The position numbers were made by a program, and so were the translations under genes. From Parvicellaceae bacterium (GTDB taxonomy: Bacteria > Bacteroidota > Bacteroidia > Flavobacteriales_D > Parvicellaceae): a DNA stretch of 64,000 bases. Location of the stretch: assembly GCA_047639575.1 (NCBI GenBank), contig JBLIOB010000001.1, forward strand, positions 178 through 64,177, written 5' to 3'. The notes beneath the pieces are model-generated. The model made no database searches and was not told where the DNA came from. It saw nothing but the letters and a program-made list of their open reading frames with translations. Below, piece by piece: positions 58 through 19,044 of this stretch (its first letter is position 1; each line of letters begins with the position of its first letter).

Positions 58-166
58 CAAAAATAAGGCAAGCTACTCACATCGCACTGCTACAACCGTT
101 TACCCTTGCTATGTTCCCATCCTGGGGGATTCAACAGGAGCTAGTCGTGTGAGACTTGCCTCGCGG
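58..166 (-). ncRNA. ffs: Signal recognition particle RNA (small 4.5S type)
   Basis: The minus-strand read forms a long hairpin closed by GGCAAG...CTTGCC (plus 67-88 pairs with 148-160). The apex reads CCAGG-AUG-GGAA-CAU-AGCA-AGGG: a GGAA tetraloop flanked by the AGG and AGCA loops of SRP domain IV. A T-run follows. No ORF here. Confidence 0.75.
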
Positions 167-236
167 TAAAAGTACAACAACTTTATTATTTGCAAAATAT
201 TATAGCACTAAAAAAGGCTAAAAATTAAGAAGCCTG

Positions 237-725
237 CTAAATCCAGGCTATTGTGAAAGCGCAAAAGGCAATAGCCAAAATAGCAAGCAACGTTCTTGTC
301 AACGATTTTTTCCAGAGATCCAATCGAACAACACCTCTCTTATGACTTGTTAATTCATTGATTGCATATAAAACATCCTCAATAAACGTGTCAGAATCTT
401 TTAAAAGATAGTCTGTAGCCCCCTTTTTAATAATCTGTATAACAACATTCAATTTAGATTGCCCACTAAAAAATATTACGGGAAGCGAAGTTTTATTTTT
501 TTTCGCCTTTTTCATAATGTCTAGCCCATTTTCCGCCTTGCTATTTTCACTATCCAAATGATAGTCTAATATTAAGACATCAGAGTTTGGGTTAGATGAA
601 AAATAATCATCGCCAGACACAAAAGCAGACACATTATAATTAGGATTCTTACTTAGTTCATAAGACAATAACGATCTTACAATTTCACTATCTTCGATAA
701 TATCGATATTGTATTTCTCTTCCAT
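237..725 (-). CDS. Response-regulator receiver domain protein with C-terminal transmembrane tail anchor
   Basis: 162 aa. Receiver signature: IDIIEDS acidic pair, VLILDYH phospho-acceptor Asp, IFFSGQ, KKGATDYLLK. The protein ends in a hydrophobic helix, TLLAILAIAFCAFTIAWI. Overlaps the upstream gene by 38 nt. Confidence 0.75.
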   Translation of the reverse strand: MEEKYNIDIIEDSEIVRSLLSYELSKNPNYNVSAFVSGDDYFSSNPNSDVLILDYHLDSENSKAENGLDIMKKAKKNKTSLPVIFFSGQSKLNVVIQIIKKGATDYLLKDSDTFIEDVLYAINELTSHKRGVVRLDLWKKSLTRTLLAILAIAFCAFTIAWI

Positions 726-1818
726 GGCGTTTGTTTTTTATTAGGTTATTTCTCTCCTCAAAAAGTTTAACATTTATGCTCAATTCTTTGAAGTTTATCA
801 TTTTCAAAAATCTATAGTTACGAATCACAACCAGTGCTTCAAACGTTATAGCGTAGATCAGTACTAATTTTACCAAAATGATTGACTCAAGCCCTTCTTC
901 AATAAAATAATGTCCACATACCCCTATTAAAAGTGCCAATAAAAGCACAAAAGTAGTCGCTTGGGTATGATTAAAGCCTAAAATCAACAATTTGTGATGA
1001 AGGTGATTTCTGTCTGCCTTAAATGGCGTATTCCCCATTAATATTCGACCAATCAAAAGTCTAATAGCATCAAGTATGGGCACCAATAGAAAGCCAATAA
1101 TTAGAAAAATATCTGGATTCATCGTTATACCTTTACTTGAGATAGTCGAGATTGAAAACCCATATATTAATAGACCTAATGCCAGCGAACCGGAGTCACC
1201 CATGTAAATTTTGGCTGGTGAATAATTGAGAACTGCAAACCCAAGCAAACTTAGTGTTAACCAACCTAACATTGGTAAATTAACGGTGCCTGATTCAAAG
1301 TTCATAAAGAATAATATGGCAAAAATTCCAATCGAGAAGGTGACACATAATCCATCTATTCCATCTAAGAAATTAACCGCATTAATCAATCCTACGCCTA
1401 TTACAAAAGAAATTAAAATTGAAATTAGTAAGCTTAATTCTCCAATTCCAAACAATCCATATAATGATTCTATCCTATAGCCTGAACATACAACTAGACC
1501 AACTGCAAAAAACTGCAAAATAAACTTAATTTTATAGGAGAGATCGGACCTATCGTCTATGGCTCCTGTAACTAATAAAATTGCGGTTGAAATCAAAAGT
1601 GCCATTTCTTTACTGAAGATTTCCGGTTTGCAGAATACAACAAAACCTATCAAGGAAACCGTTACAAACACTACTCCTCCAGAAGTAGGAACGATGTTCT
1701 TATGAAGTTTTCTTGCATTTGGATGATCTACAAGACCTAACCTACCAGCAAATTTGATTTGAAGTTTGAGTAATGCATAAGTTGCAACAATAGGTATTAG
1801 AAATATAAAATAATTCAT
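688..1818 (-). CDS. Undecaprenyl-phosphate sugar-1-phosphate transferase (MraY/WecA family, GT4)
   Basis: 376 aa polytopic membrane protein with motifs DDRSDL, NAVNFLDGIDGL and MGDSGSLALG. Confidence 0.8.
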   Translation of the reverse strand: MNYFIFLIPIVATYALLKLQIKFAGRLGLVDHPNARKLHKNIVPTSGGVVFVTVSLIGFVVFCKPEIFSKEMALLISTAILLVTGAIDDRSDLSYKIKFILQFFAVGLVVCSGYRIESLYGLFGIGELSLLISILISFVIGVGLINAVNFLDGIDGLCVTFSIGIFAILFFMNFESGTVNLPMLGWLTLSLLGFAVLNYSPAKIYMGDSGSLALGLLIYGFSISTISSKGITMNPDIFLIIGFLLVPILDAIRLLIGRILMGNTPFKADRNHLHHKLLILGFNHTQATTFVLLLALLIGVCGHYFIEEGLESIILVKLVLIYAITFEALVVIRNYRFLKMINFKELSINVKLFEERNNLIKNKRHGREIQYRYYRR

Positions 1819-1823
1819 AGTTC

Positions 1824-3026
1824 TTATTTTTGATAGTAATGTTTGGTTCTTGATAAATGCATAATTCCCTGATCTAGCAATATTTTATTGGAAACACGCG
1901 ACAAATCCAAAGCGACTTGAGACTTCTTATAATTATATTCGAATGATCTCAGCAACATAACATATTGCCTTCCTACCAACTTCCAGGTGTAATGTTGATT
2001 TGCAACTTCCTTCAAATTGGTTCTTACTCTGACCAAATCACTGTATGTAAACGATTCCAGCTGCAGTTCCAAATCTTCCCTCCCTTTAAAATAGAGTGCC
2101 TTATCATGTGTGGTGTATCTATTAAACGAAACATCAAACGCTAATACCGGAAGTCCCAAATACATTGCTTCTATCAGTGATGGGTTCGTTCCTCCTGCGC
2201 TGTGACCATGAATATATAGATGTGCATTAGATCTAATTACATTTAATAAAACAGGGTCGTATATGGGGTCTAACAAATGAATATTTGGATAAGAACTGTA
2301 GTTCTTCTTTAAGTAAATTCCATACTTACTATTCTCCCAGTTTCCAACAACGACCAGATTCCGTTTTCCGTTATCTGTGAATGCTTCCAAAATCATATCT
2401 AAATTATTTTCAGGCTCAATCCTAGCCACTTTAAATGCATACAGCCCATTAATAAATGGGTACTTCAATCTATCAATGGGCCTTATCGCAATAGGCTTAG
2501 CATGATCAGCGCCATAGGGTATTAAATGGCTTAATGTTTTATATTTAATTGAGGTGTAACGCTTAATGCCCATATTGTCTGTAATGTCGGCATGAGAGTA
2601 TTTTACCGCTAGTCTTTCAGAATATTTAAGAAATGATTTAGCCGTTCTACCCCACTTCGCCCTCCTCCATTCTAATCCGTCTATGTTCACAATTAATTTT
2701 CTATTTGTTAAGCGTCTAACAAATGGAAATGCAATACCTCCTGAAACCCCAAGAGAAAGGATATGCTGATGATTAAAAACTGCCAAAAACAATGATAATA
2801 CATCGTAAACAATACTCTGAGGACCATTTGCATTGAACGGTAAGTAAATTAGCTTAGCTCCTTTATAATTCTCTAATCGTTCTTCTTTTGAATAAAATTT
2901 TCTACTACAGAAAACGGTTACGTTATAATTATTCGTCAAATATGGAAGTATGTTATCAACCATGGTTTCAAACCCTCCGTATCTCCCTGGCACTCCAACC
3001 GTACCAATAATTGCTAGTCTTTTCAT
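1824..3026 (-). CDS. Glycosyltransferase (DUF1972 N-terminus + GT1 C-terminus)
   Basis: 400 aa. N-terminus MKRLAIIGTVGVPGRYGGFET is typical of DUF1972-type GT-B enzymes. C-terminal region contains HSAGGTNPSLIEAM. Confidence 0.7.
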   Translation of the reverse strand: MKRLAIIGTVGVPGRYGGFETMVDNILPYLTNNYNVTVFCSRKFYSKEERLENYKGAKLIYLPFNANGPQSIVYDVLSLFLAVFNHQHILSLGVSGGIAFPFVRRLTNRKLIVNIDGLEWRRAKWGRTAKSFLKYSERLAVKYSHADITDNMGIKRYTSIKYKTLSHLIPYGADHAKPIAIRPIDRLKYPFINGLYAFKVARIEPENNLDMILEAFTDNGKRNLVVVGNWENSKYGIYLKKNYSSYPNIHLLDPIYDPVLLNVIRSNAHLYIHGHSAGGTNPSLIEAMYLGLPVLAFDVSFNRYTTHDKALYFKGREDLELQLESFTYSDLVRVRTNLKEVANQHYTWKLVGRQYVMLLRSFEYNYKKSQVALDLSRVSNKILLDQGIMHLSRTKHYYQK

Positions 3027-3074
3027 TTCTTAGTTTTTTATCCTTAATAACAGATTAGCGAAGACTAAGCCAAA

Positions 3075-3104
3075 ATTAAAAAAGCCCCTATTTCAGGGGC
3101 TTTA
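3075..3104 (-). terminator. Intrinsic terminator-like hairpin inside the EPS gene train
   Basis: Minus strand reads AAAGCCCCUGAAAUAGGGGCUUUUUUAAUUUU. GC-rich 6-7 bp stem (plus 3083-3088 with 3096-3101), GAAAUA loop, U-run. It sits in the 128-nt gap between two glycosyltransferase genes. Confidence 0.6.
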
Positions 3105-3154
3105 GGAAATAAACACAAAATGTAAGTCTAGATTTGGGAAAGTAATTCCCATAA

Positions 3155-4321
3155 TTAGGCAGCTCTAATTCTGCCTTGTTGAAGTAACACTTCATCCCCG
3201 AAATGAGCATTAAGGAAAATGCCAAGCCTTTCATTGAACGAAGATGTGGTTAATTTACTATTGAATATAAATTTACCTCTCATGCCATGCGTCCTAATCT
3301 CCTCTGGGTAATCCAAATAATACTCAATTGCTTTCGCTAATGATCTAGCATCATTATGTTTCACCAAAAAACCACTCTTTTTATTTGAAATAATTTCTTT
3401 GGCTCCACCATGATCTGTCGCAATAACCGCTCTACAACAACTCATTCCCTCTAATACAGTTGTTGGAAAAGGGTCTTTCATTACACTAGGAACTAAAATC
3501 ACATTAGCCTTGGAGAAATGACCCTTTACATCAGGTGTGAAAGGAAGAATATTCACAATACTTTGTAAGTTATCTTCAATCACTCTTTTTAACAAATCAT
3601 CTCTAAGGTATTTCTTGCTTTCTACTGTATCTCCAACGATATGAAATCTCGCCTTCTTGAGTTTATCTGATGGAATAATTTTCAAAGCATCCATCAAATA
3701 CCATTGTCCTTTTCCCGGCTTTATCCGTCCAATTAAAAAGAATCGAATAGGCCCTTTCACTATGTTTTGACCAGCAACAATAGATTGAATCCCGTTATAT
3801 ATCACCTCTGTTTTACCAGATCTAATATACTTATGTAGATTATTCTCAACCGCTTTCGACACACATACAATTTTTCGATTGTAACGATTTGCCATTTTCG
3901 CAATTTGACGCGCTACTACTTTTGGCTTTTCAACTATTTCATGACAATGGAGAAAAGAAGGTATTTTCAATCGATCGGTAATTTTACTTACATAAACACC
4001 AGCCATTGTATTATGATACGCTAAACTAAAATTATGGATAGCGTGTAAATTTTTAATCAAATGTTTAGTCTTCTGATAATCGGAATAAAAAGAAGATATT
4101 CCTTTAACACTCATCCTATTTCTGTATATAACTGAAAGAAAATCGACAAAAATTATATCTGTGTTTTCAACTTGATCCGTAATAAATTTGGTCAGTTCTC
4201 CATCTTTAGGCAGCAGGATGATTTTCCTCGTTGAGGCGGGAAACACCTTAAGGGCGTTAACTAAAATTCGGTCTGCACCATAAAGTTCATTACTTGGATG
4301 TGTTACTAATATTGTTTTCAT
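3155..4321 (-). CDS. Glycosyltransferase family 4/1 (GT-B)
   Basis: 388 aa. C-terminal pattern PTTVLEGMSCCRAVIATDHGG is typical of GT1/GT4 nucleotide-sugar binding domains. Confidence 0.7.
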   Translation of the reverse strand: MKTILVTHPSNELYGADRILVNALKVFPASTRKIILLPKDGELTKFITDQVENTDIIFVDFLSVIYRNRMSVKGISSFYSDYQKTKHLIKNLHAIHNFSLAYHNTMAGVYVSKITDRLKIPSFLHCHEIVEKPKVVARQIAKMANRYNRKIVCVSKAVENNLHKYIRSGKTEVIYNGIQSIVAGQNIVKGPIRFFLIGRIKPGKGQWYLMDALKIIPSDKLKKARFHIVGDTVESKKYLRDDLLKRVIEDNLQSIVNILPFTPDVKGHFSKANVILVPSVMKDPFPTTVLEGMSCCRAVIATDHGGAKEIISNKKSGFLVKHNDARSLAKAIEYYLDYPEEIRTHGMRGKFIFNSKLTTSSFNERLGIFLNAHFGDEVLLQQGRIRAA

Positions 4322-4322
4322 A

Positions 4323-5609
4323 TCATGCTCTTAAAAGTGGATAATTAATCATTTGGGACTTTCCCTGATCTGACTGATGCGTAATTGAATCATAGATCTC
4401 ATTAAATTTTTTTGCTTTAACCGTCCATGTCAGATGGTTATTGAAATGTTGCTTCGCCTTAGTTCCTTTATACATGAGCATATCTGGATTGCAATAAAAT
4501 TGCATTAGTGCGTTAGCCATCTCAACAATAGATTCTTCTCTATAAAGACTAGCCACTCGCACTCCTGAATAATCATCAATTAACTCTCCAGGCCCAACAT
4601 TATTCAAGCAAACAACGGGTATCCCATAAGATAGTGCTTCGGGTATTACCATTCCGGCACCTTCATGAGACGGGAATAAAAACACTGAACTATCGTTGAA
4701 TAAATTCATCATTTCAGAACGCTCAACCCAATCAACGATACTAACATATTCTGATATCCCTTGCTCGACTACTAGTCGCTCCAATAACCCTTTCTGTTTT
4801 CCCTTTCCAACAAGTTTTAATTGAATGTTTGCACGTTTATCTTTTGGAATTGATTTAATAAACTTTGCAAAAGATTCAATAGTCAAATCGAAACCTTTCA
4901 TTGGCACAAATCGACCACAGCTTAACACTGTAAATCCTCGTTTAATATCCCTAGACACGTAATTTGGAAGTTCGCTAGCAACGGCAGGAATAATAGAAAA
5001 TTTATCTTGTTCTACGCTAATCACGTCTTGTACGCTAGAATTAATCCCTATAATATGATCTGTTCTTTCAACAGCTTTTCTGTAATTCGGATCTAACTTT
5101 CTAAAACTCCATTTTATCAAATAGTATAATCGATCTCTTATGAGTTCAATAATTGGATAAGGCCTCAGGAACTCTTTTTCAATCTTAGGGTGATGTCCAA
5201 TTGGCCCCCATACAGTTGGTTTACCAAGTTTCCACATAAAATGAGGTTGACTATCGCTATGAAAATTCAATGAATGTGCAACATCAAAATCCAACTGTAA
5301 TTTCTTTATTTCATTAACAATGTAGTATTGCCAAAACCAATAATAGATAACATAGCCGCGCCTTCCGCTGATTTTCTTTATTCTCATTACCCAATTGGGT
5401 AAGTCGAAATAAAAAAAAGACATATTATCAAGCACTTTATCTCGTGGGTTTTCAGCTCGAAACCTGTCAATTTCAGCTTGATTATTCTTTCTAGTGAATA
5501 GAAGAACCCGGTTGTATTTAGCTACATGATAAGCGCTGTTCCAGCCAGTAGCGTCTTCAGATCCTTTGTACGGATTTACAGCATATGCGGTCATTAATAT
5601 TATTCTCAT
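4323..5609 (-). CDS. Glycosyltransferase family 1
   Basis: 428 aa. C-terminal FLFPSHEGAGMVIPEALSYGIPVV motif. Stop lies 1 nt from the next gene's start. Confidence 0.65.
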   Translation of the reverse strand: MRIILMTAYAVNPYKGSEDATGWNSAYHVAKYNRVLLFTRKNNQAEIDRFRAENPRDKVLDNMSFFYFDLPNWVMRIKKISGRRGYVIYYWFWQYYIVNEIKKLQLDFDVAHSLNFHSDSQPHFMWKLGKPTVWGPIGHHPKIEKEFLRPYPIIELIRDRLYYLIKWSFRKLDPNYRKAVERTDHIIGINSSVQDVISVEQDKFSIIPAVASELPNYVSRDIKRGFTVLSCGRFVPMKGFDLTIESFAKFIKSIPKDKRANIQLKLVGKGKQKGLLERLVVEQGISEYVSIVDWVERSEMMNLFNDSSVFLFPSHEGAGMVIPEALSYGIPVVCLNNVGPGELIDDYSGVRVASLYREESIVEMANALMQFYCNPDMLMYKGTKAKQHFNNHLTWTVKAKKFNEIYDSITHQSDQGKSQMINYPLLRA

Positions 5610-5649
5610 TTTATCCGTATTTCGCCAGAGGCGAGAGAAGCTTCCTGAT

Positions 5650-8274
5650 CTAAGCGACCAGAGATAGCTCCTCTATGATTATATTAATTGTAGTTTTTTT
5701 GTCATTATTTTCAATCGATCTATAAACACCTTTGTACTTACTAGAAAAATCACTGAATAATTGCTGATATTTTAAATTAAGTATCCTAATTTGATTTGCA
5801 GTCATTTCTTGTTTTCTACTTAAAATAACTTCTGGAGACGCATACAGATAAAAATTCATTTCTGGTTTTCTTACCAGGCCGTAAAAAAGCTTCACGAGTT
5901 TAGGGCTCAGTGATATATTAGATCTCTTTGCATCGTTGATAAAATCAAAATAATACCGATCATAAAGCACTATTTTCCCTCGCCACGTATATTTATAGGC
6001 AACGTAGATTTGTCCTAACAAATAGTCTAAATAGTAGTACCCAAACCTAAATATTGAGCTAACTACACTCTCATTTGTTCCTTGACGCGGAAGATTTATT
6101 GAAGCTCTTTTATCTGCTACATCCTTTCCATGCTGATATGCACTAAGTATTGGCAGTAAATTTGGCCGATGCCTTAATAAAACAACTTCTTTTCTAAACT
6201 GTTTTTTCAATCGATCTTCTAACTCCTGAACGATAGTAGTTTTACCAACTCCGTCAACTCCGCTAATTGTACATATAAAACCGCGATTGTTAATCAACTG
6301 TCGCAACGTATCAAAAAAGTAAACAAAACGTTCTGTCACCTTCTTTTTCAAAGAGAAACTTGATCTAAATACACTTAACATGTATCTCGATTTACTTGGC
6401 GTCAAATCCAAAAGCTCATCGATCGACTGATAGTTAAACATATACTTACTATTAAAATAGCGAACAGCTTTACCTTTATCTAGCCAATTCGCTCGTTGAA
6501 ATAGTTCTTGATATTTTTCCGGGATACACCCTTTATTCAGACCATAAAACAAAATGCAATTCTCAAGTTCAAATTGCAATTTTGGCCGCATTACTCCAAG
6601 TTGCTTCATACTTGAATTAATTAACACTTCTTCATTTAAGTATTGTTTGCCCTTACAAACCATTTTCGAAATCAGATCTATATATAATACCTCTCCGGTT
6701 AACAGTGATATCATCAATTGGGACAAGTAACTTTTCGTTACCACTTTAATCTTACTGATGCCAGGGTGCATTTTTAAATACTCGATCGTTTCCTTTCTCA
6801 ACCCCGTAGAAACTAATATGTCAAGATCCGCCTCCAAGCTTATTTCTAACGGATGAACGAATTGTTTAATAAACGTGTGACGCTTGCCTTCCAAGAAAAT
6901 ACAGAGATCACGAATTAGTGATATTCTATCATTTTCAGCTACACCATAACCTAACCCACGGAAAGCTTCTTGCCAACAGAACACTAGTCTTAATTGATCA
7001 ACTGACAATTCTGATTGACAAGACATCATTGCTAGTTGAAAAGACACATTATCTAATAAATAGTACTTTAAGTATTTAACAGGATCAATATCCCATTTTT
7101 GGACATATTCTTCCAATCCCCATTTCTTAAACTCATTCCAAATTGTGCATTCAATAGCCTGCCAAGAATTGTTATTAATGAGTACACCTCGTTGAATGAT
7201 GAAATGAAAAAAATCGGAAAGCATCGAACAGTAATTTGACGCTAGTTCAAAATCTATTAAGTACAATGACTCACCGCTATTAGAAGTATTCCAAGGAGTG
7301 AAATCACCATGACTTTTGGTCATTAAAACTTGATTACCTTTTAATTCTGCAAGAATTTCTTCTAATGACGCCCCCAGATATGGCGAATGTGGAATAACTT
7401 TTGACTTCGAATTATGAAGTAAATCAATATTGCTCACTATGGAGAGATACTGACGAGATTGCTGAAAAGGAAGTTGAATCACTGATTTTTCCATCACCTC
7501 TTTTAAGAAAACCACATGAGATTTAGATAGTTTTTTTGACGCTTGAATCTTTTGGGTTTCACCGTTTACAATGGCATAATTAGAAAAGCTATTGACTTTG
7601 GGCAAAGAGACTGAGTTTAAGTTTAAATTCTTCCAAACCCCATTCATTTTTAATTCATGATTCTGTAATTCCCTTGTTAAAGCAGTTTTGGATATTTTCA
7701 CAAAATATGAATGCCCGCTGTGCTCATAAAAAACAATAGGTGTATTCCCGAAACCTTTACTACCTCCAGAAAACGCATAATTAAAACCTAAAATTTTGAT
7801 ATGATTACAGGCACTGACGTCTGGCCGAACAATCACATTACAAAACCCTGAAACAAACAATCTACTCGCTTTTATTAAATGCAATAAACGCATCCCAGTA
7901 ACAAGAACTTTTGATCTTTTAGTAAAAGGCTGATATAGCTTTAAAAAACTCAAAGACCGTTTACTAAACATCCACCGAAGGCTGCCATCTTTGCGGTTGA
8001 TAAAACTCATTTTTATTTTCTCAGTGTGGCCGACAGACAAACTGCATGAAAAGTCCAAAATCAACTCAAAGTCATCCAATTCGTAAGACTTATACCTGAT
8101 CATCTCTCCTGCGAGATTCACCAAGATTTTATTGGCCTTGACACCCACATACTCACCTATAATTGGCTCATTTTCAACTAATCTTTGATACGGATCGAAA
8201 ATGAAAACACTTTTATTAGATGGGACCATCGAATGGATCCAATTATTTAGGTCTGAGGCGAGAATATTTTTCAT
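5650..8274 (-). CDS. Fusion protein: APH/choline-kinase-like phosphotransferase + thymidylate-kinase-like P-loop kinase
   Basis: 874 aa. Central HGDFTPWN catalytic loop and LIDFELAS (the DFG-equivalent) match the aminoglycoside/choline kinase fold. C-terminal ISGVDGVGKTTIVQEL Walker A with LLRHRP resembles dTMP-kinase-like proteins. About 190 aa between the two are unassigned. Confidence 0.55.
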   Translation of the reverse strand: MKNILASDLNNWIHSMVPSNKSVFIFDPYQRLVENEPIIGEYVGVKANKILVNLAGEMIRYKSYELDDFELILDFSCSLSVGHTEKIKMSFINRKDGSLRWMFSKRSLSFLKLYQPFTKRSKVLVTGMRLLHLIKASRLFVSGFCNVIVRPDVSACNHIKILGFNYAFSGGSKGFGNTPIVFYEHSGHSYFVKISKTALTRELQNHELKMNGVWKNLNLNSVSLPKVNSFSNYAIVNGETQKIQASKKLSKSHVVFLKEVMEKSVIQLPFQQSRQYLSIVSNIDLLHNSKSKVIPHSPYLGASLEEILAELKGNQVLMTKSHGDFTPWNTSNSGESLYLIDFELASNYCSMLSDFFHFIIQRGVLINNNSWQAIECTIWNEFKKWGLEEYVQKWDIDPVKYLKYYLLDNVSFQLAMMSCQSELSVDQLRLVFCWQEAFRGLGYGVAENDRISLIRDLCIFLEGKRHTFIKQFVHPLEISLEADLDILVSTGLRKETIEYLKMHPGISKIKVVTKSYLSQLMISLLTGEVLYIDLISKMVCKGKQYLNEEVLINSSMKQLGVMRPKLQFELENCILFYGLNKGCIPEKYQELFQRANWLDKGKAVRYFNSKYMFNYQSIDELLDLTPSKSRYMLSVFRSSFSLKKKVTERFVYFFDTLRQLINNRGFICTISGVDGVGKTTIVQELEDRLKKQFRKEVVLLRHRPNLLPILSAYQHGKDVADKRASINLPRQGTNESVVSSIFRFGYYYLDYLLGQIYVAYKYTWRGKIVLYDRYYFDFINDAKRSNISLSPKLVKLFYGLVRKPEMNFYLYASPEVILSRKQEMTANQIRILNLKYQQLFSDFSSKYKGVYRSIENNDKKTTINIIIEELSLVA

Positions 8275-8295
8275 TCAAATTATTTAAATAGACTT

Positions 8296-8312
8296 ATGCG
8301 TAATTCATGCCA
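8296..8312 (-). promoter_or_regulatory. Weak sigma-54 (-24/-12)-like element
   Basis: Minus strand reads TGGCAT-GAATT-ACGCAT, with the GG and GC dinucleotides at consensus spacing (consensus TGGCAC-N5-TTGCW). It lies about 22 nt upstream of the start of 5650..8274. The -12 half deviates (ACGC instead of TTGC). Confidence 0.2.
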
Positions 8313-8402
8313 CATGCACTACTCTCTTTATTAATAAGGATTTCTAAGATGTTAATGGTTTAAACTGTCCAGAACAGAGAGCGTTTTTCCCAGAATGGGA
8401 TG

Positions 8403-9698
8403 TTAATTTGATACGGCTCCAAACCGTTTCTGAAGTCGATTTAAGCTAACACGATCAAAACTAGTCATGTGCTTTCGTTGTTTGATAACAAATAACACGA
8501 TCAAGTACTGATAAAAAAGAATTCCATAATTCGCATCTCCAAAAAATCCAAACTCAGTAAATGAATTAATTAATATCGGAATGAACAGGGCGATAAAAAA
8601 CTGTCGGTACGGACTAACTTTTTCAATTACAAAATTCCTGACCGTACAAACTACATTCCAAAAAGCAATAAAAAAGCCGATAAAGCCTAAGTTCATAAGA
8701 ACTTGCATAAAAGTGTTATGTGTCATCTTACCTGGATAGGTAAATAAACCTTGAAAATAGTCGGTGTAGTTTATTCGCATAAAACCGTAGCCCAACCAAG
8801 GCTCTTTAACAATCCCTTCATTCAGAAGAGCAGTCCAAAAAGGAAGGCGACCCGTCATACTCATTACTTCCTCTACACCTCCACCATCTTTAAATATTAC
8901 AAACTTTAATGCCAAGGGAACAGAAATCACAGCCCCGACTACCATAACCAAAATGATCTTTTTATTTTTTGTCATTAATCCTATGATCGCTGTAATTAAA
9001 AAAAAGCCAATCATAGATGATCTAGAACTAGTTAGCGCCAAGACAATCATGGCAATTATCATCTTTATAATAACCCAAAATTTCTTATCGAATTTTAAAC
9101 TTAAATAGCACATCGCTGCCCCAATTGAAGAGAGCATTCCGAGTTCATTTGGGTTCATTAAATAGCCTCCTAGTCTTTGCTCTTCGCCTCCCCGCATCCC
9201 ACGGTAAAATGTATCTTCGCTTATCAAACTACCTATTAAAAATGTAAGTAATATTGGAATTATTGCATTAGCAAATAACCTTACCATATTGACTTCATGT
9301 TGTGGGAAATGAAAATTGATTGTATAAACAACTTGAATAAACACAATCACAAAGACAAAACTCTCTACGGTCATTCCTAACTGCAAAGCCGAGTATGCCG
9401 GATCTGTACTCCACATAAAAGAAGCGAGCCCCAGAATTAGATACAGCGTATACAGTATTGGGCTGAATAAATTTTTATATTCAAAATTTTGAATACAACC
9501 TAACTTCCTTAGTTTGTAGGAATAGAAAAAAATAAAACCTGTACACCCAATTCTGAAGATAATTTTGAATATCTGAGTAATCCCTCTATCCTCTACAATT
9601 GAAAAATAACCAACTATTTTAAAAAATAAAATCAGCGTCAGAATTATGCCTGCCTTCTTAATATAAACAGGCAACCTGCTATTTTGATGAACGCTCAA
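8403..9698 (-). CDS. wzy: O-antigen ligase/Wzy-like polysaccharide polymerase
   Basis: 431 aa with about 11 TM helices. Wzy_C-like segment LTSSRSSMIGFFL. Located inside the EPS locus. Confidence 0.6.
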   Translation of the reverse strand: MSVHQNSRLPVYIKKAGIILTLILFFKIVGYFSIVEDRGITQIFKIIFRIGCTGFIFFYSYKLRKLGCIQNFEYKNLFSPILYTLYLILGLASFMWSTDPAYSALQLGMTVESFVFVIVFIQVVYTINFHFPQHEVNMVRLFANAIIPILLTFLIGSLISEDTFYRGMRGGEEQRLGGYLMNPNELGMLSSIGAAMCYLSLKFDKKFWVIIKMIIAMIVLALTSSRSSMIGFFLITAIIGLMTKNKKIILVMVVGAVISVPLALKFVIFKDGGGVEEVMSMTGRLPFWTALLNEGIVKEPWLGYGFMRINYTDYFQGLFTYPGKMTHNTFMQVLMNLGFIGFFIAFWNVVCTVRNFVIEKVSPYRQFFIALFIPILINSFTEFGFFGDANYGILFYQYLIVLFVIKQRKHMTSFDRVSLNRLQKRFGAVSN

Positions 9699-10798
9699 TT
9701 ATTATAAAGTTTGTTGATTTCTTGAGCAATTAAAGTCCAACTAAAATGGTGAGCAATGGTTCTTCTACAATTTTCTGCCATTTTACTGTAATGTTTAGTG
9801 CCATGCAATTCTTGAAATTTTTTAAGCGCTTCAGCCAAAAGCTTTGGAGAGTTATTTTCTAATGATAAGCCACAATGGTATTTACTAACCTGTTCAGCCA
9901 AATTAGTTTCTGGAGATACAATTACCGGAACACCCAATGCCATACTTTCTAAGACAACACCAGGAATTCCTTCGTTCCTTGATGTTAGGACCAAGGCTGT
10001 AGACTCTCCTATCAACTCATCTTTTTCTTTCCCAAATAATGGACCAAGACATACAATATGTTTGGCCAAATTATTTTTGCGGATTAGAAGCTGAAAAGCT
10101 TTTGATTGATTTCCTCCGCCAATTACTTTCAAGTTTATATCTACTCCTTGTCTAACGCATTCCTTTACTGCCTGAACAAGTATATCCAAGCCTTTAGTTT
10201 GAATGTCAATTCTACCGCAAAAAACAAATTGAAGTTTAGATGACTTTTTCCCTGAGAATGATTTCAACTCTTGTCCATTAGGGATTAATACATACTTTGT
10301 GCTAATCTTTTTAGATCGTATACCCTCTATTTCAGATTGACCAATGAGCTGAATTACTTTTGCATGATTTAGAAAATAACGATCGAACAATATAAAGTAA
10401 AGGGTCTTTTTCAATTTACTAGTATGCAATACTCGTAGATTATAGCCGCCATGAAGATTCACCACGTACTTTATATTCTCTTTGATTAAAAGTCGGGACA
10501 CCATAAAAAATTGGGGAATAAAAGCACCATGAAAATGAAATACAACGCCATTTGAATCTTCTTCAAGAATTGCTTCTTTCAATCTCCGATCTAAACTAAA
10601 TTTTGCTTCATCTTGAAATAATTTAGTTATATATGGGCGTTTTGGGTAATCATGGACAAGTACCTTTGTAATCCCCCAAATTTCAACATTTAAACCAATA
10701 CTATTTTGAGCAGCTGCCAAGCTACTCACTACCTTATTTACTCCGTTTTGGCGATTAGGATTAGCTTTCCCAAGAATGATATGAATAACCTTCATCAT
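9695..10798 (-). CDS. Glycosyltransferase family 1
   Basis: 367 aa. LVLTSRNEGIPGVVLESMALGVPVIVS motif. 4-nt overlaps with both neighbours. Confidence 0.7.
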   Translation of the reverse strand: MMKVIHIILGKANPNRQNGVNKVVSSLAAAQNSIGLNVEIWGITKVLVHDYPKRPYITKLFQDEAKFSLDRRLKEAILEEDSNGVVFHFHGAFIPQFFMVSRLLIKENIKYVVNLHGGYNLRVLHTSKLKKTLYFILFDRYFLNHAKVIQLIGQSEIEGIRSKKISTKYVLIPNGQELKSFSGKKSSKLQFVFCGRIDIQTKGLDILVQAVKECVRQGVDINLKVIGGGNQSKAFQLLIRKNNLAKHIVCLGPLFGKEKDELIGESTALVLTSRNEGIPGVVLESMALGVPVIVSPETNLAEQVSKYHCGLSLENNSPKLLAEALKKFQELHGTKHYSKMAENCRRTIAHHFSWTLIAQEINKLYNN

Positions 10799-12021
10799 CT
10801 TTTGTGCAATTTTAACTTGCCAAGGAAATAAGTCAAACCAATGACTTGTGTACTATAAAATCCAATTATTACACCCGCTAATCCCAATTCATGAATTAAC
10901 GGATATGCCAGCAGTAAACTCACCGCGCTGCTAATAGCATAACTATGAAAAATCAATCTATTCTGCTCAATTGTTCGAATATAGAATCTAAGTATTGTAC
11001 CAGCATACACAAGGAAGTACATGATAGCGAAAGCGCTAAAAAGAGTCCCATAACTAATCATTTCCTGTCCATAGACCCAGGATAAAACTTCTTGATCAGC
11101 AAACACAAAAAATAGAATTATGGTGCTTACTGGAATCAGCGCTTTTAAAGACAATATGCGCGTTTCTTTTTTGAGCAATTTCAAACCACCAACAGACATT
11201 TGTTTCGCCATGGAAATCGGAACAATATTTTCTAGGGCCAAAAAGAGGACATGTAATACTCCCATTAAATTTTGCATCATCCGAACTACACCCAGTGCGG
11301 ACACACCCAGCCATAAACCAGCCATCAATCCAAATGCATTACCAGAAAACCATTGTAAAAAAGAGGTCCCAACAAGGTATTTCGAAAAAGCCCAATTTTG
11401 CTTGGCGAGTTTCCATATTCGCTTCCTTTTAATTTCGGCTATTCTAACTGGATACCTTGCCATCCCCATTAAAACACTCAATCCATAAGTTAAAACCAAA
11501 ACATATACTGCAGAAGTAATGGTCAGAACATCTTGATATGATAGCAGAAGAATCAATGGCACTTGCAACCCATAGGCAACAGCATCTCTAAAAAACACCT
11601 TGATTTCCGATTTACTTACAAATCCAATTCTTCGATCAAAATCTTGTATCTGATAAAGGAAAATAAATAGACTTCCTCCCACGGCAAGCTCTATACGTTC
11701 CGATTGAAATACAATAAGAAAAACGACAAATGCAACCAGCATTGAAAGAGAAGCCACGAATAAAGCTATAATCTTTTGCTGTCCCAAGTAGAATGGTTTA
11801 TTCATCTTTTCGGCATACTGACTGTAAATCGTTTGTGAGATAAAACTTTGCTGAAAACTGAATAAAACGAAATTGGTCATCCAGATAATACTAAACTCTC
11901 CAAAGGACTCAATACCAATTTTTCTAGTAAGAACAATTGCCATTAAGAAATTAGTTCCACTAACTAGCCCTTGATCCGCAAACACGAGCAATGTTCTATA
12001 TTTCCACCACCATCTTCTCAC
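10795..12021 (-). CDS. wzx: Polysaccharide flippase (Wzx/MOP superfamily)
   Basis: 408 aa polytopic membrane protein. Position and size match a Wzx flippase. Translationally coupled to the wzc-like gene. Confidence 0.55.
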   Translation of the reverse strand: MRRWWWKYRTLLVFADQGLVSGTNFLMAIVLTRKIGIESFGEFSIIWMTNFVLFSFQQSFISQTIYSQYAEKMNKPFYLGQQKIIALFVASLSMLVAFVVFLIVFQSERIELAVGGSLFIFLYQIQDFDRRIGFVSKSEIKVFFRDAVAYGLQVPLILLLSYQDVLTITSAVYVLVLTYGLSVLMGMARYPVRIAEIKRKRIWKLAKQNWAFSKYLVGTSFLQWFSGNAFGLMAGLWLGVSALGVVRMMQNLMGVLHVLFLALENIVPISMAKQMSVGGLKLLKKETRILSLKALIPVSTIILFFVFADQEVLSWVYGQEMISYGTLFSAFAIMYFLVYAGTILRFYIRTIEQNRLIFHSYAISSAVSLLLAYPLIHELGLAGVIIGFYSTQVIGLTYFLGKLKLHKR

Positions 12022-14303
12022 CTAATGTAATACCACAAATAGTTCTTAATTCTCTTGATAAAGTTGGCTCCCTGCGCTTCATAGCTCAATCCGCTCCCAA
12101 TATATAACCCGTTAAAATTACTAGCCTTATGAGCAGAATTTAATATGATATGAATATTGTCTATCCCATGCTCTTGCTGTATTAGATCCGGATTTACAGC
12201 AAAATGCTTTTTGGTATATCTTGCTCTTATTATAAATAGATTAATCGAGGCCAATTTCATCATTGGGATTGCTTCTGGAGAAATGGCAGTTGGCGGAGTA
12301 TCGATGACCACCACATCATACTTTTTGAATAAGTTAGTAGTCAAGCTTTCAAATTTTTTAACACCACTTATTTGAGTAGCTTCATCTCGAATTCCTCTCA
12401 CAACAATCAAATCAGGAAGAGACGAATCCGTATAAATTACATGGTCTTCTAGCGGCCCAATATCTTTAAACGTACTAATTAGCTTTTCTTCTTCCAAACT
12501 ATTATTCAAACCGTGTAAGCCGTTACAAGAATCAAAATCCGCATATAAAGTGGAGTATCCCAATTGTGTGAAATGTTTTGCCATTCTTGTCGCAACAAGA
12601 CTTCTACCTTCTCCTCTTATAGAAGATGCAATAGCCACAATTTTAGGCTGTTCATCATCTATTTTGCTAAGGATCCCAGATGCCAAATTCCCAACCTCAA
12701 CATCCAAGTTATTGAATCGAAATTTCTTTCTAACAACGCCAATAATAGAAGTATCCGTTTTCCGTTCAATATCAGTTCGATAAATAATTTTGCCTGATGC
12801 TGAGTCTTTTATAAAAACAAACGCAATACCGAGAATAATTCCTAGCAAACCTGACACAAAAGTTATTAGGGTTTTATTAGGCGAAATTGGTTTCGAATTC
12901 AATGTCGCAGGCTGTATAATTCGATGAAAAGAGATTAACGCGCTACTAGCAATTGCAGCCTCTGTTCGCTTCTGAGATAGAAATGTATAGACCTGTTCAT
13001 TTAGTAAAAACTCTCGTTCTAAAACCTTCATTTCTCTCTCTCTAGTAGGAAATCCGTCAAACATTTGTTCCTCTTTGGAAATCCTACTTTTCATCTCTAA
13101 TCTCTTCGTTTTAATATCACTTTTACTTGTTTTAATCGCTTCTTCTATGTAATTTTTTATTTCCTGTATTTTCTTGTCAACAGCCAATATTTTAGGATCT
13201 TCTACCGTGTATTTCAACAGTAAATCATGCCGTTCATCGATGTATTGTTTCATCTTTTTCACTAACTCAGTCATTAGTAAATCTCCATAACCAAAATTGA
13301 TTGAGGTCTGATTAAAATAGTCCCCCGACTGCATGTATTCATCCAAAGAATCAATTGATTCCTGCTGTATTTGAACGTTAATTAACTGTATCTTCAGATT
13401 AGCCAATGACCGCAATCCTGTCTCGGTTTCTTGCTTTGTGTTTACAACCTTATTTTCTATTTTATATTTCTCTAATACACCTTCAGACTCAACCAATTTT
13501 TGCGTAACCTCAGCCAGCCGCTCATCTATAAAGTTCAGCGTGTTTTGTGCAGCTGAACTTTTTGTTTTAACGTAATCTTCGATATAAACTTCACATAGGT
13601 GATTAACAATATGCTGGGCTCTTCTAGCATTCTGATCATCATAAACGATTCTGAGAACAGGTATTTCTTTATCAATTGCATTAATATGCAGATGTTCCAA
13701 AACTTTATTTACAACAGATTCTGAAGAATTCAATTCAATTCGATACGAGCCAACAGCCATTTGATCGTCATAGCCTTCTTTTATGCTTATCACAACCATA
13801 TAATCTTTTAATTTAATAGAGTCTCCATAATGATATTTAGACTTCGTTAATGCTCCTTTAACAAGCTCAATACCATTTTGTGATGCGTTGACAACAATAT
13901 TATTTGGCGGTGCCTTATCTTTATAAGAAACAAAATCAATCTCCAACGGAGAATCAACGCCATAAATCAATTCTTCTTTTCCAGCTCCTTGTCTGAACAC
14001 TCGAACACCTGCATTAATTTGATTCACAACGGCCTTTAATAATAAAGGTGATTCCAAAACCTGTGCTTCAGATTCTATCTTGTTTTCTGATGAAAAAATA
14101 TCCAGGTCGCTATATAAATTGTTGCTAGAGAATCCATACGCCTGATCATCTAATTTAATTTTCGCCACACTTTGATAAATTGGCGTAGCCTTTTTTATAT
14201 AATTCCTAGCTAATAGAATTGCTAATACAAGTACCAACGCTATAAATGGCGACCCCTTCACATAAGGCAAAAGTCCAATTTTTATTTGCTGAATTTGATT
14301 CAT
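12018..14303 (-). CDS. wzc: Wzc/GumC-type chain-length determinant with BY-kinase-like domain (Walker A Lys replaced by Arg)
   Basis: 761 aa. N-terminal Wzz-like periplasmic/coiled-coil region flanked by TM helices. C-terminal P-loop domain has SSIRGEGRS and Walker B VVVIDTPP. Tyr-containing tail NYLWYYIR. Confidence 0.7.
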   Translation of the reverse strand: MNQIQQIKIGLLPYVKGSPFIALVLVLAILLARNYIKKATPIYQSVAKIKLDDQAYGFSSNNLYSDLDIFSSENKIESEAQVLESPLLLKAVVNQINAGVRVFRQGAGKEELIYGVDSPLEIDFVSYKDKAPPNNIVVNASQNGIELVKGALTKSKYHYGDSIKLKDYMVVISIKEGYDDQMAVGSYRIELNSSESVVNKVLEHLHINAIDKEIPVLRIVYDDQNARRAQHIVNHLCEVYIEDYVKTKSSAAQNTLNFIDERLAEVTQKLVESEGVLEKYKIENKVVNTKQETETGLRSLANLKIQLINVQIQQESIDSLDEYMQSGDYFNQTSINFGYGDLLMTELVKKMKQYIDERHDLLLKYTVEDPKILAVDKKIQEIKNYIEEAIKTSKSDIKTKRLEMKSRISKEEQMFDGFPTREREMKVLEREFLLNEQVYTFLSQKRTEAAIASSALISFHRIIQPATLNSKPISPNKTLITFVSGLLGIILGIAFVFIKDSASGKIIYRTDIERKTDTSIIGVVRKKFRFNNLDVEVGNLASGILSKIDDEQPKIVAIASSIRGEGRSLVATRMAKHFTQLGYSTLYADFDSCNGLHGLNNSLEEEKLISTFKDIGPLEDHVIYTDSSLPDLIVVRGIRDEATQISGVKKFESLTTNLFKKYDVVVIDTPPTAISPEAIPMMKLASINLFIIRARYTKKHFAVNPDLIQQEHGIDNIHIILNSAHKASNFNGLYIGSGLSYEAQGANFIKRIKNYLWYYIR

Positions 14304-15052
14304 TATCTTGTCAACAATGTACCCAACAGCACTATAGCGGTTAACGTGCTTGCAATTGGGATTAGCGTTGGAGCCTTCTTCTCTATTGTTTTCCCAGGGC
14401 GCGCAGGAACATGAATTATATCACCATCTTTTAAATTGATTTGTAACAACTTTAACTGATCCTTTCCGTCCAGGTTTAATTGATACATTTTATCATCTCG
14501 AATGAATCTAATTTTTTTTGTCTGTGCGTAATACAGCATTCCTTCTGCCTTACCTATCAGTGTAACTAGCGTGTTCTTTTCCTCATCTAGCAAATAATTA
14601 CCGGGTGATTTTACCTCGCCCAAAATCGTTACTTCTTTATTAAGCAGCCTAACTTTGATAATAGGATTCAGCAAAAAAACAGAGTATAAACTCACCAGAG
14701 TGTCCTCGGCCTGAGAAAGAGTGAGCCCTCCTAATTTAATTAACCCTAGTTTGGGAAAACTCACCTCTCCTTTTGAATTAATTAAAACCCATTTTCCGAA
14801 GGACTCATGAGAATTATAAATCGTGAATAATGATCCTACACTCAAATCATCATGATTCCATATGCTTAGACTTATTTTATCATCTGGCTTTAGCACATGT
14901 TGTTTTGTGCCCATTGTATCTAACAACGCACTGTAATCTTTTTGTACTTCAACTTTATTAAAGTTCTTACTAGCACCACAAGACGTGGCTATTAATAGTA
15001 TTGTCATCAAATAAAATTGAAAAAAATTAAATCGATTCATCTTAAAATCCAT
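14303..15052 (-). CDS. wza: Polysaccharide export outer-membrane lipoprotein (Wza family)
   Basis: 249 aa. Lipobox LLIATSCG. Poly_export-like LKPDDKISLSIWNHDDL. C-terminal hydrophobic helix. Confidence 0.75.
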   Translation of the reverse strand: MDFKMNRFNFFQFYLMTILLIATSCGASKNFNKVEVQKDYSALLDTMGTKQHVLKPDDKISLSIWNHDDLSVGSLFTIYNSHESFGKWVLINSKGEVSFPKLGLIKLGGLTLSQAEDTLVSLYSVFLLNPIIKVRLLNKEVTILGEVKSPGNYLLDEEKNTLVTLIGKAEGMLYYAQTKKIRFIRDDKMYQLNLDGKDQLKLLQINLKDGDIIHVPARPGKTIEKKAPTLIPIASTLTAIVLLGTLLTR

Positions 15053-15536
15053 TTTGTAGCAACATGATTATCGACCAAACAATTAAAATGAACAGCACAA
15101 CAATGGGTACTGTAATTTTGGAAAGAAAATGATAACGTTCATTTTCCGCCAGTAAATAATTGAGTTGGAATGCTCTTCTAACCACAGACGCCATTTTCAA
15201 AAGACCATCATCACCTTTGTCTATGTAGTCGTATGCACCATATTTAAGGGCGTTTATTGCAACCTCTAATTCTTCTTGTGCACTTAAAAAGATGACTTGA
15301 ATTTCTGGATATAACCCCTTAATTTGTTTCAAAATGGTAAGGCCATCACTATCACCTAAACCGTGATCCAGTAACACAATTTCGGGGATCTTGTATAAAT
15401 TGTCAACCGCTGTTTTTCCCGAATGATATACTTCAATCTGGGTTAAATGTTCATTTTGAAGCTGCTTTTCGATCGCATTCGCATAAAAAACATCGTCTTC
15501 TACAACAAAAATTAGAGGGAATTTTCTACGTTTCAT
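15042..15536 (-). CDS. Response-regulator receiver domain protein with C-terminal transmembrane tail anchor
   Basis: 164 aa. Receiver signature FVVEDD, VLLDHGL, IFLSAQ, KYGAYDYIDK, then ITVPIVVLFILIVWSIIMLL near the C-terminus. The 3' end overlaps the wza start by 11 nt. Confidence 0.75.
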   Translation of the reverse strand: MKRRKFPLIFVVEDDVFYANAIEKQLQNEHLTQIEVYHSGKTAVDNLYKIPEIVLLDHGLGDSDGLTILKQIKGLYPEIQVIFLSAQEELEVAINALKYGAYDYIDKGDDGLLKMASVVRRAFQLNYLLAENERYHFLSKITVPIVVLFILIVWSIIMLLQNGF

Positions 15537-15548
15537 ATTGGGGGAGTT

Positions 15549-15977
15549 TTATGATACTGATTTAGTCATCAGATCAGGGTTAATAGATCTGTTAGTTGTA
15601 TTGATAAATTCTTGTGACATCACAAATCTCTGAATACGGCCAATAGGAATAACTTTTCTAGAAATCGCCCAGCTATTTTCTGGGGAGAGATGATAGATTG
15701 GCACATCAGACTGGAATAAATTCACTTTCTCTAGAAACTGCTTGGTCAGAATTCCATTCCCAGCATAATATTCATCTAATATGCACAGATCAGGAGTGAT
15801 CGCTGACACCGCCATGAATGAATTTTCGGATGCCTCTAAATTAATTAATTGCGTATGCTCTATATCCAGATGATGTTGCCAGAAAAAATCGCTTTTGAGC
15901 GTAGAGCTGATAATGAGTAATGTGGAATTTTTCATGTCTGTCGATTTGATATCAACAGTCCAATCTATAGTCCACAA
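15549..15977 (-). CDS. Hypothetical protein, possible degenerate (pseudo-)receiver
   Basis: 142 aa (start may be the internal MKNSTLLIISS). Beta-alpha pattern LLIISS / DLCILDEY / VPIYHLS resembles a receiver, but the N-terminal acidic pair is Ser-Ser. Confidence 0.35.
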   Translation of the reverse strand: MWTIDWTVDIKSTDMKNSTLLIISSTLKSDFFWQHHLDIEHTQLINLEASENSFMAVSAITPDLCILDEYYAGNGILTKQFLEKVNLFQSDVPIYHLSPENSWAISRKVIPIGRIQRFVMSQEFINTTNRSINPDLMTKSVS

Positions 15978-18508: not shown

Positions 18509-19044
18509 TTTCGTGCAATCTGAAAATTAATTTCGGTGCCATTGCCAGATTTGTCTTCTAACTCAACCTCTAATGTCTCTTTGTAATAAATTCCACATCC
18601 ATGAATTAATCCAAGGGCAAAATGGCCCATTGATCGTTCACTTTTATAAATCATTTCAAGATGATTCTGATCATGCCTGATCATTTGAAAGGATGGCAAT
18701 TCTGCATCCGGATATAGTTTTACAACCTCCACATGAACGTATGATTCAACCTTCTCTAAAAAATCCAATGAATTCTCTATACCTGCAAAAAAATTCTGAT
18801 ATGTATTGCTAAAACTATTGAACATGTATTTCCCAAACGTTTCCAGCAAAATAGGAACTTCTATGTTTTTTAGTTTAGAAAGAGCCACTACTAATTGAAC
18901 TATTTCCTCATGAGGATATGTGCCAACTGAAGTATATGCCCCTATATGACCCAAATTTGCAGATTGAATCATTTTATCCGAGACGTCAAGTCCAAAATTA
19001 TCTTCAACCATTTTAATGTATTCCGTAAACACTACTCCTTTCAT
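18505..19044 (-). CDS. hnoX: H-NOX (haem nitric oxide/oxygen binding) sensor protein
   Basis: 179 aa. Starts MKGVVFTEYIKMV. Candidate proximal His in SYVHVEVVKLYP followed by a conserved Pro. Y-x-S-x-R haem-propionate motif as YKSER, then LGLIHG. 4-nt overlaps with the kinase and the sigma-54 regulator genes. Confidence 0.8.
   Translation of the reverse strand: MKGVVFTEYIKMVEDNFGLDVSDKMIQSANLGHIGAYTSVGTYPHEEIVQLVVALSKLKNIEVPILLETFGKYMFNSFSNTYQNFFAGIENSLDFLEKVESYVHVEVVKLYPDAELPSFQMIRHDQNHLEMIYKSERSMGHFALGLIHGCGIYYKETLEVELEDKSGNGTEINFQIARK

Follow-up and report, generated by a model that had tools for sequence, protein, structure and literature searches.

What does a response regulator regulate when its only output is a membrane anchor? 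The question is raised by a locus in a Parvicellaceae bacterium (Bacteroidota; GenBank assembly GCA_047639575.1), of which a window of 64,000 nucleotides (nt) was analyzed: contig JBLIOB010000001.1, positions 178 to 64,177. An exopolysaccharide (EPS) operon in the window ends in the gene for REC-TM1 (P0001), a protein that consists of a phosphorylation receiver domain (REC) and a C-terminal transmembrane (TM) helix. A second protein of this layout, REC-TM2 (P0002), is encoded farther upstream in the same operon. How bacteria throttle the costly synthesis of envelope polysaccharides after transcription is poorly understood. We propose that the two proteins are membrane-tethered single-domain regulators, forming a post-translational branch of a gas-sensing relay, and that REC-TM1 acts on the transferase that initiates polysaccharide synthesis. 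We hold this proposal tentatively, at slightly less than an even chance.

The receiver and its C-terminal helix

Residues 9-112 of REC-TM1 match the CheY-like receiver family (Pfam PF00072, Response_reg; E=2.5e-13, 50.6 bits against a cut-off of 30.2). NCBIfam returns sub-threshold matches only, to full-length regulators of the FixJ, NtrX, and NtrC types, and among the Pfam and NCBIfam models no curated family fits the whole protein. The catalytic set is intact: the acidic pair E11/D12; the phospho-acceptor D54; residues S87 and K109; and the aromatic switch residue Y106. A 55-sequence family alignment shows no variation at D12, D54, Y106, or K109 and almost none at E11 and S87. The receiver is therefore complete, including its Ser/Tyr switch pair.

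Beyond this receiver the protein has only one further element, a hydrophobic helix at its very C-terminus (TLLAILAIAFCAFTIAWI, residues 145-162). It is the single TM-like segment of the protein (about 144-162, 17-19 residues, reaching the last residue); there is no N-terminal signal or TM segment. Its assignment as a membrane anchor was judged from hydropathy scales and the AlphaFold2 helix. On the Kyte-Doolittle scale the segment averages 2.1-2.6, and its Hessa values sum to −0.3 to −3.5 kcal/mol, with 2.5-2.6 and about −3 kcal/mol for residues 145-162, a hydropathy on par with accepted TM segments of the WecA-like, Wzy, and Wzc proteins of the same operon. The 17 residues preceding the segment include six Lys or Arg; none follows it. 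Positive charges solely on the N-terminal side thus argue for an N-in topology, without an external domain. REC-TM1 has the sequence features of a tail-anchored membrane protein, and its insertion is predicted from them. Both elements, complete receiver and hydrophobic C-terminal helix, were described in the initial annotation and are borne out here.

The AlphaFold2 model, built from the family alignment, adopts the canonical (βα)5 receiver fold (pLDDT 92.4, pTM 0.80), with strands at residues 5-10, 30-35, 50-54, 83-87, and 105-108, and helices at 14-25, 38-43, 67-77, 92-100, and from 114 onward. In the model, α5 is one continuous helix from residue 114 to 161 that passes through the hydrophobic tail, and pLDDT is 96-98 across the final 30 residues. 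A Foldseek comparison with the PDB returned receivers only and no other fold; the longest alignments (138-141 columns, TMq 0.69-0.71) were to NtrC1/DctD-type receivers (1ny5, 4l4u, and 1zy2). An α5 unbroken into the membrane helix would place the phosphorylation-sensitive α4-β5-α5 face at the membrane surface, on what the model predicts to be a rigid stalk.

Might the tail instead be an oligomerization or degradation tag, or the mark of a decaying gene? Its shortness (17-18 residues) could be read in this way, as could the long branch and low identity that separate P0001 from its orthologues. However, a tail occupies the same position in all orthologues and in 80 of 80 relatives, positive charges flank it, the open reading frame (ORF) is intact with all catalytic residues, and the tail itself is modeled with high confidence. 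We therefore regard this explanation as highly improbable.

Coupling to the polysaccharide operon

The REC-TM1 gene closes a train of minus-strand genes that runs from an NtrC-like gene (20390) to position 237 (Table 1). In the six-frame ORF list, its ORF begins 38 nt within the preceding one, which encodes a polytopic phosphoglycosyl transferase (PGT). This transferase matches the WecA model TIGR02380 with E=2e-45, under the cut-off, hence the wording "WecA-like". A weak terminator-like hairpin and the signal recognition particle (SRP) RNA gene beyond it mark P0001 as the last protein gene of the train. The overlap and the terminal position thus agree with the initial annotation, with the reservation that an internal hairpin (below) may set off the last three genes.

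This coupling is conserved. The same EPS operon, with its H-NOX, hybrid kinase-HPt, and σ54 activator genes, was found in at least ten other loci, a Flavobacteriales group of several genera and metagenomes: L019/G041 and L072/G042 (Crocinitomicaceae); G010; G078; probably G079; the metagenome contigs L144-L147; and, in part, L001. A REC-TM gene overlaps the 3' end of wecA in eight of the ten operon ends seen (the window, G041, G042, L148, L149, L150, L151, and L153), by 4-38 nt. Outside the window, the protein is a receiver of 163-173 residues with a C-terminal TM helix, and its gene overlaps the end of the PF00953 gene by 4-11 nt. (The terminal REC-TM gene of L150 is split by a frameshift, in a 2.3x assembly.) The genes farther downstream differ among loci, whereas the overlap with the wecA stop is present in all eight. 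Toward the other end of the operon, REC-TM2 lies directly before wza in all ten other syntenic loci, with a spacing of −11 to +31 nt where wza is intact and +122 nt in L147, in which no more than a fragment of wza was called. The association with EPS genes, on which the initial annotation had staked its interpretation, therefore persists in related genomes, and the two REC-TM genes bracket those for synthesis and export, as it had described.

All proteins encoded after wecA resemble one another more than they resemble REC-TM2. With the L148 protein P0001 has 37% identity (3e-25), with the L149 protein 35% (8e-23), and over the group 34-37%, and it shares with the others an insert behind the phospho-Asp, LD(Y/H)xLDSxxxxAxxG. 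Judged by position, shared insert, and pairwise BLAST, these proteins are one orthologous group; a maximum-likelihood tree failed to place P0001 or the variants with an altered acidic pair (the Q-E-N group, below), because their branches are too long. Searched alone, P0001 found three relatives in a search of 5.8 billion proteins and no orthologue in 40 related genomes, and a genome-contig scan gave generic receivers only. The thought that it might be a lineage-specific oddity was dropped once REC-TM genes were seen after wecA at the operon ends of relatives.

REC-TM2 falls in a distinct orthologous group. The initial annotation had called it a paralogue with the same layout, overlapping wza; the layout and the overlap (11 nt) stand, but it is not a recent paralogue. 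Its receiver matches PF00072 with E=3.4e-19 (69.5 bits), and its best NCBIfam matches, like several of the top ones for P0001, are regulators of the NtrC/NtrX type. The same genome also encodes a 161-residue close relative of REC-TM2 without the hydrophobic tail, next to a 1117-residue hybrid kinase (contig C325, 4221-4706, plus strand); this protein is a soluble counterpart.

Where would phosphate come from? No phosphodonor is encoded nearby other than the hybrid kinase with its HPt domain, which some orthologous operons encode as a separate ORF. A hydropathy scan found no TM segments in the kinase, H-NOX, or NtrC-like proteins, so REC-TM1 and REC-TM2 are the only membrane-bound signaling parts of the operon. 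Perhaps, then, the anchored receivers are docking sites, which recruit the soluble H-NOX/kinase complex to the membrane such that phosphorylation sets the residence time of the kinase, rather than the activity of an enzyme. Receivers bind HPt domains by design, and the lack of TM segments in the kinase and H-NOX protein fits this idea. Yet there is no evident gain in localizing a kinase that also has a DNA-bound activator as a substrate, and no extra docking motif was seen in the receivers; the idea appears quite improbable.

We favor a two-branch model. Signal would pass from the H-NOX protein to the soluble hybrid kinase and its HPt domain, and from there to REC-TM1 and REC-TM2 as terminal phospho-acceptors. 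One branch, through the NtrC-like activator, would control transcription; the other, through the REC-TM proteins, would carry the signal post-translationally to the inner-membrane machinery. Synthesized alongside the WecA-like transferase from overlapping genes, REC-TM1 would insert its tail anchor N-in beside the enzyme. Phosphorylation of D54 would flip the S87/Y106 switch, thereby altering the contact that the α4-β5-α5 face, or a REC-TM dimer, makes with the cytoplasmic loops of the transferase. The altered contact would gate the first, undecaprenyl-phosphate-consuming step. REC-TM2 would act equivalently at the export/polymerization end, with Wzc or Wzx as its most plausible partner.

Several considerations support this model. 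A bare receiver acts only by protein-protein contact and the tether is conserved, so the partners should be restricted to the inner membrane. The conserved overlaps of REC-TM1 with wecA, and the coupling of REC-TM2 to wza-wzc, indicate co-translation with the machinery. Together with the precedent of the receiver EpsW (discussed below), the tether and the overlaps favor two branches. The domain content, the intact phospho-site, the conserved anchor, and the conserved gene coupling are observed, and the continuous α5-TM helix is modeled. Gene coupling and membrane co-location suggest that REC-TM1 acts directly on the WecA-like enzyme; we infer phosphotransfer from the HPt domain, insertion of the tail into the membrane, the identity of the partner, and whether the effect is activating or inhibitory. 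Wza, which the initial annotation had named as a possible direct partner, is an outer-membrane protein and cannot contact a cytoplasmic receiver; Wzc or Wzx is therefore the likelier partner of REC-TM2.

A different membrane target for REC-TM1 must also be weighed: Wzx, Wzy, Wzc, lipid-carrier recycling, or REC-TM2 itself through heterodimerization, with the position after wecA reflecting operon packing. The TM helix is not conserved in sequence and so implies no specific intramembrane partner; a single train encodes all of the inner-membrane parts; and Wza adjoins REC-TM2 without being able to touch it, so adjacency need not mean contact. Nevertheless, the start of the REC-TM1 gene overlaps the wecA stop in eight loci despite the differing genes downstream, and it is the initiating transferase that is under direct control in the published case (PMC12802240). 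We consider a different target unlikely.

The two-branch model has a bolder form, which we find doubtful: both REC-TM proteins are phospho-switch subunits, REC-TM1 on the WecA-type enzyme, gating initiation, and REC-TM2 on Wzc or Wzx, gating polymerization and export. If true, a single gas-sensing relay would adjust the assembly line at its start and its finish in a matter of seconds, with no new transcription needed. The rigid α5-TM helix would be a new kind of response-regulator output, in which the anchor positions the switch face at the bilayer surface, and REC-TM1 would provide the first example of receiver control over a polytopic PGT of the MraY superfamily.

The remainder of the operon provides further context. 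From its 5' end, the train encodes the NtrC-like activator, the H-NOX protein, the kinase, a 142-residue protein, REC-TM2, Wza, the Wzc-like protein, and the Wzx-like protein; there follow a GT4 glycosyltransferase, Wzy, an 874-residue P-loop protein, two further GT4 enzymes, a gap of 128 nt, the DUF1972 glycosyltransferase, the WecA-like transferase, and REC-TM1. A gap of 130-210 nt before the DUF1972 gene is kept in all syntenic operons seen. Since a strong terminator-like hairpin lies in this conserved internal gap, the last three genes may form a separately controlled sub-unit. A consensus search found no σ54 promoter within the operon. The 408-residue membrane protein (10795-12021, minus strand) has no Pfam match itself; its orthologues match PF01943 (Polysacc_synt), and on this sequence evidence the Wzx flippase of the locus is most likely this protein. 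In the Wzc-like protein, the Walker A motif (residues about 560-568) carries Arg at the expected Lys position.

The 142-residue protein is found between the kinase and REC-TM2 in every syntenic operon. A STAS domain, as in SypA of Vibrio fischeri, was considered and rejected: the AlphaFold2 model (pLDDT 79) and Foldseek give a receiver/flavodoxin-like fold. The protein lacks α4 and the acidic pair (S-x-N-N instead) but keeps an Asp at the end of β3, and a Ser-Pro after β4 is invariant. The model points to a pseudo-receiver as its probable nature.

Two of the relatives show peculiarities of their own. In L148 (19440-21299), from a metagenome, genes of the NUDIX, SRA-HNH, and reverse-transcriptase types adjoin the end of the operon and may constitute a defense island. 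In L149 (11318-12530), two small opposite-strand ORFs without Pfam matches lie between wzy and the gene for an 887-residue P-loop protein.

Table 1. Features of the EPS operon and its surroundings, with positions in the window; the last row gives REC-TM variants on other contigs.
Feature	Position	Strand	Basis or remark
NtrC-type REC-AAA+ σ54 activator	19041..20390	minus	Sigma54_activat 1e-69; transcriptional branch
H-NOX haem gas sensor	18505..19044	minus	PF07700, E=3e-41
Hybrid histidine kinase PAS-PAS-HisKA-HATPase-REC-HPt, soluble, presumed phosphodonor	16046..18508	minus	Domain matches
Small conserved protein, 142 residues, degenerate receiver/flavodoxin-like fold	15549..15977	minus	AlphaFold2, Foldseek, synteny
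REC-TM2 (P0002), 164 residues, receiver + C-terminal TM helix (141-160)	15042..15536	minus	PF00072
Wza-like export protein	14303..15052	minus	Poly_export + SLBB
Wzc-like polysaccharide co-polymerase with BY-kinase-like domain	12018..14303	minus	Walker A reads GEGRS
Biosynthesis core: GT4a, GT4b, 874-residue P-loop protein, Wzy, GT4c, Wzx-like flippase	3155..12021	minus	Domain matches
Wzx-like flippase, 408-residue membrane protein	10795..12021	minus	PF01943 (Polysacc_synt) on orthologues
Terminator-like hairpin + T-run, strong	3081..3103	minus	In 128-nt gap (3027-3154)
DUF1972/GT4 glycosyltransferase	1824..3026	minus	First gene past conserved gap; domain match + synteny
WecA-like polytopic phosphoglycosyl transferase	688..1818	minus	PF00953; 3' end shares 38 nt with REC-TM1
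REC-TM1 (P0001), 162 residues	237..725	minus	Receiver, α5 continuing into C-terminal anchor (~144-162); last gene of the train
Weak terminator-like hairpin across REC-TM1 stop codon	231..249	minus	
Small SRP RNA gene, Bacteroidales type	62..168	minus	Rfam RF04183, 102 bits; directly downstream of REC-TM1
Q-E-N REC-TM members	L135 6216-6710; L136 537-1028; L151 10001-10501; L153 4241-4735		

A wider family of anchored receivers

REC-TM proteins are not confined to this operon. In 185,579 species genomes, P0002 has 369 relatives confirmed by tblastn. All of the best 80 of these 369 keep the C-terminal hydrophobic helix (ORFs of 157-205 residues; anchor Kyte-Doolittle values of 2.4-3.9; 0-16 residues beyond the helix). 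At E<=1e-30, an exhaustive search with the profile recovered 907 proteins; roughly half of the best 150 of them are bare REC-TM proteins of 145-180 residues, matched end to end. The analysis thereby defines an unnamed, widespread Bacteroidota protein family in which a receiver is joined to a tail anchor. In both orthologous groups, mean pairwise identity is 52% and 32% over the REC core, compared with 16% and 18% over the TM helix. Judged by this disparity, the helix serves as a tether of a generic kind, and the surface of the receiver must carry the specificity.

Neither Pfam nor NCBIfam yielded a model for a receiver that ends in a tail anchor, and we found no paper on such a protein. The literature searches returned nothing on response regulators described as membrane-anchored, membrane-bound, or transmembrane, and "tail-anchored" together with "response regulator" gave incidental co-mentions only. 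Rare membrane-anchored output domains of response regulators are mentioned in an archaeal census (PMC5847659).

The family splits into two parts: a tight, slow-evolving clade in Prolixibacteraceae and allies; and the Flavobacteriales group with the EPS operon. Members of the former (L002-L080; for example, L016 9974-10501 and L062 10001-10507) carry a juxtamembrane motif, SNKRYKxG. On one side their genes have a divergent neighbor that, to judge from its sequence, encodes a type III pantothenate kinase; the convergent neighbor on the other side is likewise taken to encode an S41 C-terminal peptidase.

Several observations weigh against a role for REC-TM1 at the initiating transferase. First, genes of the Prolixibacteraceae clade, which forms the majority of the family, stand alone among housekeeping genes, with no EPS gene within 10 kb. 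Insert-bearing members also occur elsewhere, in a two-component cluster and downstream of uvrD, and P0181 likewise lies away from EPS genes. The REC-TM module is therefore not specific to EPS and has other uses. (Of the initial interpretation, then, the protein layout and the gene association hold, whereas EPS specificity does not.) Second, G010 and G078, both of genus g11, hold the whole operon, and in them the train ends at wecA without a terminal REC-TM gene; REC-TM1 is therefore dispensable for the pathway. Third, in half of the after-WecA orthologues (G041, G042, and P0178-P0180) Q-E-N replaces the acidic pair, while the Asp, Ser, and Lys are kept. These variants thus have the receiver catalytic set only in part; to judge from their sequences they may be poorly phosphorylatable, and they could be drifting toward pseudo-receivers. 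Fourth, as noted, the hydrophobic stretch of P0001 is short. Finally, the established target of a bare receiver, EpsZ, is a large monotopic PGT without a β-hairpin, whereas the enzyme here is polytopic (PF00953, MraY/WecA-type), so REC-TM1 is not paired with a partner of the EpsW type.

Some of these observations speak for a phosphate sink or relay tuner. The REC-TM proteins would compete with the NtrC-like activator for the HPt phosphoryl group, or drain it back, and so set the gain and timing of transcription; the anchor would merely localize or stabilize them, with no membrane enzyme contacted. Single-domain receivers that act as sinks are well known (Sinorhizobium CheY1 and Rhodobacter CheY proteins). 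The operon encodes several receivers for one HPt domain (the NtrC-like REC, the two REC-TM proteins, and the degenerate REC-like protein), genus g11 dispenses with the terminal one, and the orphan clade shows the module working without EPS genes. However, a sink has no need of the anchor that every member keeps, nor does it explain the tight coupling of two REC-TM genes to specific membrane-machinery genes, with overlaps of 4-38 nt. A sink thus seems somewhat unlikely. If the bolder form of the two-branch model holds, the orphan Prolixibacteraceae clade would use the same device on a different membrane target.

Comparison with known systems

In Myxococcus xanthus, EPS synthesis is stimulated post-translationally by EpsW, a single-domain receiver, in its phosphorylated form (Schwabe et al., mBio 2025, PMC12802240). 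In vivo, EpsW is found beside the initiating transferase EpsZ; when phosphorylated it binds and activates EpsZ, and it raises the activity of EpsZ in a heterologous host. Receiver domains also occur as fusions to some small PGTs (PMC12802240). The likeness to REC-TM1 is considerable: an output-less receiver encoded with a Wzx/Wzy-type EPS pathway; the first step that consumes undecaprenyl phosphate; a post-translational branch; and a dedicated sensory phosphodonor. There are also differences. EpsW is soluble, whereas REC-TM1 has a C-terminal anchor continuous with α5, and the donor is the Dif chemosensory kinase for EpsW but presumably the H-NOX-associated hybrid kinase/HPt for REC-TM1. The likeness is one of role, and no orthology is claimed. 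Published in 2025, the earliest clear example of a bare receiver that acts on an initiating transferase thus combines a soluble receiver with a monotopic enzyme; the present locus would be a second, structurally different version, with an anchored receiver, a WecA/MraY-type enzyme, and H-NOX wiring. Enzymes of the WecA/MraY-type family also start the synthesis of O-antigen, enterobacterial common antigen, and teichoic acids.

The circuit as a whole resembles that for Syp polysaccharide in Vibrio fischeri, in which HnoX-HahK signals through SypF (HPt) to the σ54 activator SypG, with SypE and SypA in addition. SypE is a receiver flanked by kinase and phosphatase domains, and acts on the STAS protein SypA. 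Both systems associate an H-NOX protein, a hybrid kinase/HPt, and a σ54 activator with a polysaccharide locus, and both include a second, non-transcriptional receiver branch. Here, a single gene train combines the H-NOX, kinase/HPt, and activator genes with wza, wzc, wzx, and wzy, and this arrangement is conserved. No domains of the SypE/SypA-type branch (receiver-kinase/phosphatase and STAS) were found in the operon; in their place, a single Bacteroidota operon encodes two anchored bare receivers and a degenerate REC-like protein.

At the level of structure, NtrC1/DctD-type receivers offer the closest parallel. In these also, α5 continues as a long helix that transmits the phosphorylation state. 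There it leads to an AAA+ ATPase, whereas in REC-TM1 it leads to a membrane anchor, without DNA-binding or ATPase output.

Bacterial tail-anchored proteins of the inner membrane include ElaB/YqjD, DjlC, and Flk of Escherichia coli. Like them, REC-TM1 lacks a signal peptide and carries its one TM helix at the very C-terminus, behind a cytoplasmic amino-terminal domain. Insertion must be post-translational. To our knowledge, no bacterial tail-anchored protein has a receiver domain, and literature searches found none among them.

The BcsE-BcsF pair of enterobacterial cellulose synthesis is a looser parallel. In that system, a receiver-like domain sits at the inner membrane beside the synthase, by way of a one-helix element, and tunes secretion (PMC7840130). 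However, the REC* domain of BcsE is non-phosphorylatable and binds c-di-GMP, its anchor is a separate protein (BcsF), and the pathway is synthase-dependent, not Wzx/Wzy (PMC7840130). What is new at the present locus is a single-domain response regulator with a membrane tether as its "output", in a gas-sensor-controlled Wzx/Wzy operon.

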